A DNA stretch of 5,359 bases from Escherichia coli. Its GTDB lineage: Bacteria > Pseudomonadota > Gammaproteobacteria > Enterobacterales > Enterobacteriaceae. The stretch lies in the NCBI RefSeq assembly GCF_003334765.1, contig NZ_QOWT01000065.1. One strand, written 5' to 3'. The translations under genes were made by a program, and so were the position numbers. Within the stretch, counting starts at the first letter, position 1. Each line of letters begins with the position of its first letter. Below, one piece after another: positions 1 to 5,201 of the stretch. A model generated the notes under the pieces. It was given only the letters and a program-made list of their open reading frames with translations. It was not told the origin of the DNA and searched no databases.

Positions 1-39
1 TTTACGGGGTTTTTTACTGGTTGATACTGTTTTTGTCAT
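1..39 (-). CDS. insE: IS3 OrfA (small HTH transposase subunit), first 13 codons only; partial, continues outside the window
   Basis: Minus-strand translation from ATG 39..37 gives MTKTVSTSKKPRK, matching the recalled N-terminus of IS3 OrfA (InsE in K-12 nomenclature). Truncated by the window edge, not necessarily in the genome. Confidence 0.65.
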   Translation of the reverse strand, partial: MTKTVSTSKKPRK

Positions 40-104
40 GTGAGTCACCTCTGACTGAGAGTTTACTCACTTAGCCGTGTGTCCACTATTGCTGGGTAAG
101 ATCA
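1..104 (-). mobile_element. IS3 left end (terminal inverted repeat plus 5' end of orfA); element continues beyond the window start
   Basis: Reverse complement of 1-104 reads TGATCTTACCCAGCAATAGTGGACACACGGCTAAGTGAGTAAACTCTCAGTCAGAGGTGACTCAC then ATG ACA AAA ACA GTA TCA ACC AGT AAA AAA CCC CGT AAA. From memory this is near-identical to the IS3 left terminus (5'-TG start) and OrfA N-terminus MTKTVSTSKKPRK. A GAGGTG Shine-Dalgarno lies 6 nt before the ATG at 39..37. Outer end (gatca) is at 100-104. Confidence 0.8.
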
Positions 105-209
105 ATCCAGTCTGCGTCCCGGAAATGGACGATGCCGTTGAAGAACTGGCGAATGGCAATGAGCCGCTTTATTATCGAGTTCGGTGACCGCCTGGACGGT
201 CACTTCTGA
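105..209 (+). pseudogene. IS256-family (IS1414-like) transposase, C-terminal fragment of 34 codons plus stop
   Basis: Plus-strand translation of 105-209 is IQSASRKWTMPLKNWRMAMSRFIIEFGDRLDGHF*, closely resembling the recalled C-terminus of E. coli IS256-family transposases (...IKDASKKWSMPIQNWRLAMSRFIIEFGDRLSDHL). No start codon; homology begins immediately at the IS3 end (104/105), so the gene is cut by the IS3 insertion. Confidence 0.6.
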
Positions 210-248
210 GACAAGGCATTTACACAGAATCTTAAACAGGCTCCTGGA

Positions 249-407
249 CTGATTTTTCTCATACCCAAGATGGTGTGTCATCTCTGCATTGAGAGCGGCT
301 TCAACGCAGAGCTTTTTCAGCAGCCGATCAAACTGACTGAGGTCTTCAGGGGTTTTGAGGTTTTTGGCCAGTTCGTTAGCCAGAGCCTGTAACTGTTTTT
401 CGTCCAT
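249..407 (-). pseudogene. IS256-family (IS1414-like) transposase, N-terminal fragment of about 53 codons, inverted relative to the C-terminal fragment
   Basis: Minus-strand ORF from ATG 407..405 begins MDEKQLQALANELAKNLKTPEDLSQFDRLLKKLCVEAALNAEMTHHLGYEKNQ, resembling the recalled IS256-family N-terminus (MDEKKLKALAAELAKGLKTEADLNQFSRMLTKLTVETALNAELTDHLGHEKN). Similarity is lost after about residue 53 (about nt 249) in all three frames; the remaining 48 residues of the 101-aa track ORF are read-through across the junction and the opposite strand of the C-terminal fragment. GAAGG Shine-Dalgarno about 8 nt upstream of the ATG. Confidence 0.6.
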
Positions 408-4181: not shown

Positions 4182-4235
4182 AAAGATATTCCACCACAGG
4201 AAAAATATATATAAAAAATGCTCCAGCTATTATAA

Positions 4236-4988
4236 TTATAAATTTATATCAGTTTCAAAAAACTCACTAACCCCACCGTAATCAGTTACAATTTTCCATT
4301 GTACTTTACTACTCTTACTCACAGGAATCGGATATTCAAAAGAGGAAAACGGAGCTATATAATGATGTTCAGATATTTCTTCCCCCCCCACACGCAACTC
4401 TGATAAATTTATATAAAAAGGTGTTGGGTTGACTCCTTTTAATTTATTGTTAACCCTCTGCCACTTTACTTCTCCGGCAACATCTTCAGGATGTCCTTTT
4501 ACACTTGACGGACGGACAAACATCTTGATACAAGTACTTAATGAGACTTGCACATTCAAAGTTACATTGTTTAAACTATTTTTATTACTCTCAGCCCATT
4601 TTTCATCAGACTTTGGCGGAATTCCTTTCACACAAATCCATTGTAAAGTTTCCCGATCTTTCGGAAAATCACCACCTGTTCGAACAATACGAAGACGACT
4701 GGATTGTAAGGCATCAAGCCGAAATAACGGTGGCGTTATGATAAAAGGTGCTGGTGTTTTTTGGTCTTCTAATAATACCTCTGACTGAACTAACATTGGG
4801 TAATCATGATCATTAATAATTGTTAATGTTTCTCCAGAGGAAAAAATGTTATAAATCACACGAGTAGCCCCCAAATGCAGAGAAAACATTTGGGTCTTAT
4901 TTCCCTCGTTTTCAAACGTTTTTGCATTTGCAGATACAAAAAAACATAGCGGTAAACTAATTACCAGCAAAGCTGTTCGTATTTTCAT
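4236..4988 (-). CDS. Periplasmic fimbrial chaperone, PapD-like, FGL subfamily
   Basis: Start reassigned to ATG 4988..4986 (MKIRTALLVISLPLCFFVSANA signal peptide, cleavage after ANA); 250 aa. PapD-family motifs: TRVIYN, ITPPLFRL, RETLQWICVKGIPP, NPTPFYINL. Two Cys in the mature protein about 34 residues apart (WICVKG and STCIKMF), as in FGL-type chaperones such as Caf1M and AfaB. The 303-aa track ORF is extended upstream in frame into the IS3-like orfA start (ATG 5138); alternative in-frame ATGs at 5015 and 5009 have no better SD. Confidence 0.88.
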   Translation of the reverse strand: MKIRTALLVISLPLCFFVSANAKTFENEGNKTQMFSLHLGATRVIYNIFSSGETLTIINDHDYPMLVQSEVLLEDQKTPAPFIITPPLFRLDALQSSRLRIVRTGGDFPKDRETLQWICVKGIPPKSDEKWAESNKNSLNNVTLNVQVSLSTCIKMFVRPSSVKGHPEDVAGEVKWQRVNNKLKGVNPTPFYINLSELRVGGEEISEHHYIAPFSSFEYPIPVSKSSKVQWKIVTDYGGVSEFFETDINL

Positions 4989-5106
4989 ATATTTTCTTAG
5001 GGTAGTCATATGCATTTCTAATATAGAGTATATAGTGCGCCAATTTATTGTGAGATAAAAAAATATCATACATTGATAGTAAGAGTTAATAGAGCACCGT
5101 ATTGAC
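4989..5106 (-). promoter_or_regulatory. Putative promoter/regulatory region of the fimbrial operon (AT-rich leader between the IS3-like fragment and the chaperone gene)
   Basis: About 118 bp, strongly AT-rich, immediately upstream of the first operon gene. Contains several -10-like hexamers on the minus strand (TATACT, TATGAT) and A/T tracts of the kind bound by AraC-family fimbrial activators (AggR/Rns type). No -35/-10 pair with ideal spacing could be fixed by eye. Confidence 0.3.
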
Positions 5107-5201
5107 GCTTTTTTGCTGGTTGATACAGATTTTGTCATGTGAGTCACCTCTGACTGAGATTTTACTCACTTAGCCACGTCCACTATTGCTGGGTAAGATC
5201 A
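5107..5201 (-). mobile_element. Solo IS3-like left end fragment (IRL plus first about 11 codons of orfA), truncated internally
   Basis: Reverse complement of 5107-5201 reads TGATCTTACCCAGCAATAGTGGACGTGGCTAAGTGAGTAAAATCTCAGTCAGAGGTGACTCAC ATG ACA AAA TCT GTA TCA ACC AGC AAA AAA GCG. It is about 88-90 percent identical to the copy at 1-104 (2-bp deletion plus scattered substitutions), in the same orientation. Similarity to IS3 is lost after about codon 11 (MTKSVSTSKKA then SIRCS versus IS3 MTKTVSTSKKPRKQHS). Confidence 0.75.

Follow-up and report, generated by a model that had tools for sequence, protein, structure and literature searches.

Aggregative adherence fimbriae (AAF) clusters on the pAA plasmids of enteroaggregative Escherichia coli (EAEC) are embedded in mobile elements (PMC5320562). 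This study analyzed a stretch of 5,359 nucleotides (nt) of E. coli DNA (contig NZ_QOWT01000065.1 of assembly GCF_003334765.1; hereafter the window), which contains the AAF/V fimbrial operon as carried by a pAA plasmid of EAEC, bracketed by two directly repeated left ends of insertion sequence (IS) elements of the IS3 type. Among the closest described systems are the AAF/III cluster of strain 55989 and the chimeric AAF/III + AAF/V cluster of pAA C700-09 (Jonsson et al. 2017, PMC5320562), which share with the window agg3DCB, the region upstream of agg3D, the right-hand repeat (a 94-nt stub), and a relic of the gene finO. Like the window, both clusters sit in mobile-element debris; unlike the window, both lack the left IS3, and window 244-931, with the major-subunit gene and what lies downstream, is replaced in them.

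The IS elements themselves also have described counterparts. The IS3 of E. coli K-12 and the F plasmid measures 1258 bp, has TGATC... ends, and encodes a frameshifted transposase (WP_085947771.1), features that the left copy shares as seen in sister plasmids of the window; unlike that IS3, the left copy lacks a 3-bp target duplication, and the right copy comprises only 94 nt of an isoform approximately 8% diverged. In F, IS3 interrupts finO (finO::IS3), and the right copy likewise derives from an IS3-type element that interrupted the finO of an IncF-type plasmid. The insertion site nevertheless differs (nt 199/200 of finO here versus approximately nt 396 in F), as do the isoform and the orientation, which is opposite relative to finO, and only the 94-nt stub and 19 nt of finO survive here. 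A third comparison is offered by composite transposons such as Tn10, Tn5, Tn9, and the IS1-flanked enterotoxin transposon Tn1681. As in these transposons, inverted IS ends enclose the cargo and a transposase gene lies inside one arm; unlike them, the present locus has one arm reduced to an inverted repeat stub, lacks a flanking duplication, occurs in one context, and was assembled stepwise in place.

Our analysis indicates that the repeats are very probably passive scars of two unrelated IS3-type insertions in a heavily rearranged IncF-derived pAA virulence plasmid, and that the two left ends face the same way only incidentally.

Sequences and searches

The AAF/V sequence is already public at 99.9% identity. 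Near-identical relatives (99.8-99.9%) include p140_MLI109, pE1246_1, BR1220 p104, and other plasmids; by BLAST, BR1220 p104 was 99.8% identical to the window overall. Junctions were searched for in 5426 complete E. coli genomes and in PLSDB, and the stub in the 5426 genomes. Positions in other plasmids are preceded by a label: L001 for BR1220 p104, L002 for the AAF/III plasmid pFORC69, L003 for pE1246_1, L013 for pAA C700-09, L015 and L016 for fS10a and FCI23, and L004, L014, and L017 for the other sister plasmids with an intact left IS3. IS names that RefSeq does not supply were assigned from the end sequences of the elements. A literature search returned descriptions of AAF clusters in mobile elements and nothing on these specific repeats.

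The repeat pair

The direct repeats occupy positions 10-104 and 5108-5201 and are approximately 92-93% identical, with one 2-nt indel. A repeat scan recovered them in the same orientation as two blocks, 10-76 versus 5109-5175 (67 nt, 94%) and 81-107 versus 5178-5204 (27 nt, 100%), and BLAST between the repeats yielded 91.8-92.9% identity over 98 columns. The global alignment of 10-104 with 5109-5201 revealed 4 mismatches in the first 67 nt, followed by a 2-nt gap and 2 mismatches and then by 24 identical terminal nt; the longest perfect block was 30 nt. The remaining direct repeats in the window, none longer than 29 nt or more than 93% identical, look like chance matches.

Read on the minus strand, both repeats begin with TGATCTTACCCAGCAATAGTGGAC and consist of the left inverted repeat (IRL) and the first part of orfA of an IS3-type element; the orfA start reads MTKTVSTSKKPRK in the left copy and MTKSVSTSKKAS in the right copy. 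These results uphold much of a first-pass annotation made from the sequence alone, which had described same-orientation IS3-type repeats of this composition, a right copy truncated to a scar of about 95 bp (it is cut after approximately 94 nt), and a left copy running off the window. Its identity estimate of 88-90% was slightly too low.

The first-pass annotation had also taken the ATC that follows both repeats as a coincidence. The elements end at 104 and 5201; ATC, the final 3 nt of each reported repeat, belongs to the flanking DNA. The ATC to the right of the stub represents finO nt 200-202, and the ATC at the left copy is native to IS1414, being found as well in pFORC69, where IS1414 is uninterrupted. 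The shared triplet thus comes from finO in one case and from IS1414 in the other, and it is coincidental (prior 1/64). The other IS3 copies examined were flanked by AGC in F, GTG in C311, and CAT in pSS_046. The two repeats are different IS3 isoforms that inserted independently and at different times.

The right copy and the finO relic

The stub was 92.6% identical to IS3 proper. Its identity was 96.9% to the left end of a full-length isoform that strain C311 carries on plasmid p1 and that is itself 92% identical to IS3; diagnostic variants were common to the stub and the C311 isoform. Each of the 17 AAF/III and AAF/V plasmids among the 5426 genomes carried the stub with 100% identity, and its exact sequence occurred nowhere else in these genomes. 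Its IRL carries 2 substitutions and a 2-nt deletion, the latter at approximately 26-27, among positions 25-30 of the inverted repeat of approximately 39 nt, and its inner truncation is joined to the upstream region of agg3D.

The finO relic is 43 nt long in pDEC15A-1 and pAA C700-09 (L005 10849-10891 and L013 ~14073-14115, respectively), and 32 of these 43 nt align to the finO of F-like plasmids with 30/32 matches. Because the relic directly follows the stub tip, the stub is the remnant of an IS3-isoform insertion in the finO of an IncF ancestor, between nt 199 and 200. Since the site differs from that of the classic F finO::IS3 and the orientation is opposite, an IS3-type element struck finO in the pAA ancestor independently of that event. 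As a side observation, the relic places the operon of the AAF/III and AAF/V plasmids at the decayed end of an F-type transfer region; no tra genes were annotated within the approximately 9 kb examined on either side.

Two other interpretations of the sequence around the stub were rejected. Positions 5205-5220 (TGATCTCTGCCCACGC, 3 nt past the IRL tip) resemble the tip of a right inverted repeat (IRR) and could have represented the relic of an IRR-3 bp-IRL circle or tandem junction, with a potential promoter directed toward agg3D, but they match finO, and the extra T that raises the resemblance is a lineage-specific insertion. The IS3-family element beside the stub in pDEC15A-1 was considered as the partner of the stub, but it is an unrelated IS, the end of which lies approximately 43 nt further on. 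A promoter scan found no sigma-70-like junction promoter.

The left copy

The left IS3 is visible in the window for nt 1-104 only, and its body extends past the left edge. Window 1-104 corresponds to nt 1-104 of the 1258-bp IS3 in BR1220 p104 (L001 7847-9104). The IRL at window 104-81 on the minus strand is matched in that plasmid by an IRR ending in ...GGGTAGGATCA, the two forming TG...CA terminal repeats of approximately 39 nt, and the frameshifted transposase has the same accession as that of the IS3 in the finO of F.

The junction of the left IS3 with IS1414 was found in 7 complete plasmids among the 5426 genomes, all of them AAF/V and all at one plasmid site. The element is intact at 1258 bp in four of the seven (BR1220, MLI109, HH35, and PO06021; L001, L004, L014, and L017), in which the DDE transposase with its programmed -1 orfA/orfB frameshift is also seen, and decayed in the other three. 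In pE1246_1 (L003 5041-6104), nt 410-600 are deleted internally; in fS10a and FCI23 (L015/L016 943-1704), nt 1-762 are kept and nt 763-1258 are lost, the truncation point showing CCTG microhomology with a neighboring IS remnant. At the outer end of the intact IS3 of MLI109 and BR1220, ...CCTGTTAT is joined to TGATCC.

No 3-bp target duplication was observed at the left IS3 in any sister plasmid with a full-length copy, the IRR being flanked by TAT and the IRL by ATC. Compared with pFORC69, the left IS3 stands in place of L002 7887-9000, which comprises the rest of a short IS remnant and most of IS1414. By its terminal sequence TGGATTTGCCCCTATATTTCCAGACA, this remnant is probably IS2; an annotation look-up returned no IS2. 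Such a replacement without a duplication is the pattern expected of an insertion followed by an adjacent deletion, and a deletion relative to pFORC69 would account for the missing duplication by having erased the duplicated target. Recombination of the left IS3 with an older IS3 right-end fragment by the isoprenoid gene was also considered and was rejected because that fragment does not match IS3.

Distribution and order of events

The first-pass annotation had called for a comparison with related plasmids carrying or lacking the flanks. Operons of the agg3BCD type without the left IS3 were found in plasmids of the pFORC69/55989 type, pDEC15A-1, pNORD58_1, and pAA C700-09. The stub/finO junction is common to the AAF/III plasmids of the 55989 type, pNORD58_1 (which carries another major-subunit variant), and all AAF/V plasmids, and the left IS3 is confined to the 7 AAF/V plasmids, which form one AAF/V sublineage. 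Because the stub is present in all AAF/III and AAF/V plasmids and the left IS3 in only 7 of the AAF/V plasmids, the stub is the older of the two; the right copy is an old scar and the left IS3 a recent arrival. The backbone of pAA C700-09 is a different one: there the operon lies between the aat operon and type VI secretion genes, and the conserved block extends across the stub and the finO relic as far as the next IS, which it enters. The conserved block therefore passes the IRL tip, and the tip is not the boundary of the moved segment. An IS3-like left end also lies near an IS600 end in Shigella pINV plasmids, but the arrangement is different and this candidate was rejected.

On the basis of these comparisons, we propose the following history. 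An IS3 isoform inserted into finO at nt 199/200 and later lost all but its first 94 nt, leaving the stub beside the likely AggR-dependent agg3D promoter. The 3' part of finO was cut to 19 nt by IS600, and every AAF/III and AAF/V plasmid descends from the resulting state. IS3 proper arrived much later and in a single AAF/V sublineage, landing by copy-out/paste-in transposition downstream of agg5A, in IS2/IS1414 debris, and an adjacent deletion would then have removed approximately 1.1 kb on one side together with the 3-bp target duplication. The comparisons show the identities of the elements, the order of the two events, and the lack of a duplication, of recombinants, and of a second context; the route of insertion plus adjacent deletion we infer, and the pair itself would have had no role in moving the operon.

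Alternative explanations

The first-pass annotation had suggested that the flanking copies promote deletion or amplification of the operon by recombination. The pair does offer direct orientation, 93-95 nt of homology, and a 30-nt perfect block, roughly the shortest stretch on which RecA-dependent exchange can act in E. coli. The homology is nevertheless short and approximately 7-8% diverged, and the pair is a poor recombination substrate. Neither the deletion junction (IS3 to finO/IS600) nor the duplication junction (stub to IS1414) was found in the complete genomes or PLSDB, finished assemblies of a kind that seldom captures rare or transient recombinants or circles. The stub/finO/IS600 junction was spanned only by 16 operon-bearing records and the IS3/IS1414 junction by 7, and none was hybrid; moreover, the 3 decayed left copies arose through other deletions, one of them at the CCTG microhomology. 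We consider operon deletion or tandem amplification through these repeats at a biologically relevant rate to be very unlikely.

A different possibility is that the left IS3 and the IRL stub together constitute a working 6.36-kb composite transposon, or "extended IS3," in which OrfAB pairs the IRR of its own element with the distal stub IRL and, by copy-out/paste-in transposition, mobilizes the entire AAF/V operon together with the IS3 and the IS1414 debris. Three observations favor such a unit and weigh against the interpretation of the repeats as passive scars. The IRR (TGATCC... at L001 7847) and the stub IRL (...GATCA at L001 14201, window 5201) form a correctly inverted TG...CA pair 6355 bp in extent; the frameshifted transposase gene is intact in four of the seven sister plasmids; and the 24 nt at the tip of the IS3 IRL are preserved exactly in the stub. 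For IS3-family elements such as IS911 and IS3, the ends alone suffice when transposase is supplied.

The evidence from the flanks and from other plasmids opposes this possibility. The 6.36-kb segment has no 3-bp flanking duplication (TAT versus ATC), and its flanks are unrelated, with the interior of the IS remnant on the left and finO from nt 200 onward on the right, providing no contiguous target. The right junction also predates the left IS3. The structure was therefore assembled in place and not inserted as a unit. In addition, the bracketed form was found in only one genomic context across the 5426 genomes and PLSDB, and the operon occurs in other contexts without the left IS3; the stub IRL is altered inside the inverted repeat; and the IRL of the left IS3, being proximal, would compete with the stub. 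Of the features of a composite transposon, inverted outer IS ends and a source of transposase were present, and neither a flanking duplication or empty site nor at least two contexts were found. A functional composite transposon is accordingly judged very improbable, and there is a slimmer chance still that, in AAF/V plasmids with an intact left IS3, its IRR and the old IRL stub serve as ends by which the entire adhesin operon can reach new replicons.

The first-pass annotation had also spoken of a translocatable unit, a term that belongs to the biology of the IS26/IS6 family and not of IS3. In such a unit, one IS and the adjacent operon would excise as a circle and reintegrate beside another IS copy; the likeness is limited to a superficial layout of directly oriented IS sequences around a cargo, the elements belong to the IS3 family (orfA/orfB frameshift and TG...CA ends) and not to IS6/IS26, the second "copy" is a 94-nt stub without a transposase gene, and no IS26-type circles or cointegrate-type junctions were seen in the complete genomes or PLSDB, so that this explanation has a negligible probability. 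The copies are different isoforms that inserted independently, with no duplication and in one context, and they are best regarded as the passive scars described above.

The operon and the surrounding IS sequences

The features of the window are listed in Table 1. The operon is of the chaperone-usher type, comprising agg5A together with agg3B, agg3C, and agg3D and an AggR-type promoter. Pattern and promoter scans identified an AggR box (ATTTTTTTATC) at 5064-5054 and a -10 hexamer, TATACT (5032-5027), 21 nt downstream. The consensus of the AggR box and its spacing were taken from the published architecture of AggR promoters (PMC7781526), with which the spacing in the window agrees; the agg3D promoter is thus likely to be AggR-dependent. 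The promoter region of the IS3-like stub faces the operon, and an open frame (5147-4236, minus strand) connects the orfA' start codon of the stub, an ATG at 5139, to agg3D with no stop between, an arrangement that is probably due to chance but that might allow AggR-independent read-through.

Table 1. Features of the 5,359-nt window.
Feature	Position	Strand	Remarks
Left end of IS3 proper	1..104	-	IRL tip (TGATC...) at 104; orfA start codon 39-37
IS1414 (IS256 family) 3' end	105..243	+	Transposase C-terminus to ~209; IRR tip ends at 243
IS1414 5' end, first 54 codons (407 to 245)	244..479	-	IRL tip at ~479
agg5A, AAF/V major fimbrial subunit	488..1003	-	RefSeq annotation in 99.8-99.9% identical records
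agg3B, minor subunit	1178..1618	-	RefSeq annotation; weak SafD-type NCBIfam match
agg3C, outer-membrane usher	1632..4181	-	NCBIfam usher models, E = 1.6e-266; RefSeq annotation
agg3D, periplasmic chaperone	4236..4988	-	NCBIfam SafB-type chaperone, E = 2e-72; RefSeq annotation
Likely AggR-dependent agg3D promoter	5027..5064	-	Pattern and promoter scans
Stub of IS3 isoform, 94 nt (IRL and first ~13 orfA codons)	5108..5201	-	IRL tip at 5201
finO relic (finO nt 200-218)	5202..5220	+	1-nt T insertion in this lineage; target of the IS3-isoform insertion
IS600 3' end	5221..5358	+	orfB C-terminus (stop 5312-5314) and IRR

Positions 105..243 were 99% identical to sequence annotated as "IS256-like element IS1414 family transposase" and collinear with L002 9001-9141. 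The adjoining fragment at 244..479 is annotated in RefSeq as "IS256 family transposase, missing C-terminus"; in pAA C700-09 it runs on directly into sequence annotated as IS1414, and its terminal ...ACAGGCTC matches the IRR tip at 236-243. At the right edge, window 5221-5359, which reaches one base past the IRR tip, was identical (139/139) to sequence annotated as IS600 ORF2 in pCP301 and pO157.

Further observations concern the debris around the operon. The 36-nt IRR tip of IS1414 (window 208-243) is repeated at L001 15051-15086 with 100% identity and in the same orientation. This second copy lies approximately 5.8 kb to the right, outside the window, beside a DUF1281 gene in several pAA plasmids, with the result that directly repeated IS ends enclose the operon a second time. 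One group II intron (ltrA product WP_001189111.1) was found within IS3-family elements, on differing sides of the operon among the pAA plasmids (L004 11558-13821, L005 3215-5478, and L002 ~15346-17609).

The AAF/III and AAF/V plasmids are approximately 99.5% identical over window 932-5359 and differ only in 244-931, where the body of the major-subunit gene is joined by its downstream sequence; the swapped cassette is bounded by conserved signal-peptide codons and IS1414. The IS1414 fragments left in the two plasmid types, the 5' one in AAF/V and the 3' one in AAF/III, have 33 nt of IS1414 sequence in common (window 244-276 versus L002 8030-8062), and their truncation points lie close together. 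In pAA C700-09 (L013 6820-9874), a near-complete IS1414 lies between agg5A and agg3A, which are arranged tail to tail. This arrangement suggests that inverted agg3B/agg3C copies around IS1414 may have given rise to the subunit swap, through recombination or inversion between them.

Significance

The locus is an ordinary IS mosaic, and its interpretation as a mobilizable unit, although formally possible, is unsupported. If the pair were active, an EAEC adhesin operon could hop between replicons alone, which would matter for pathotype tracking; an "extended IS3" would give AAF/V a route of spread independent of the plasmid. The main value of the analysis is a corrected map of the AAF/V region, in which the right repeat is an unannotated stub of an IS3 isoform in a finO relic.

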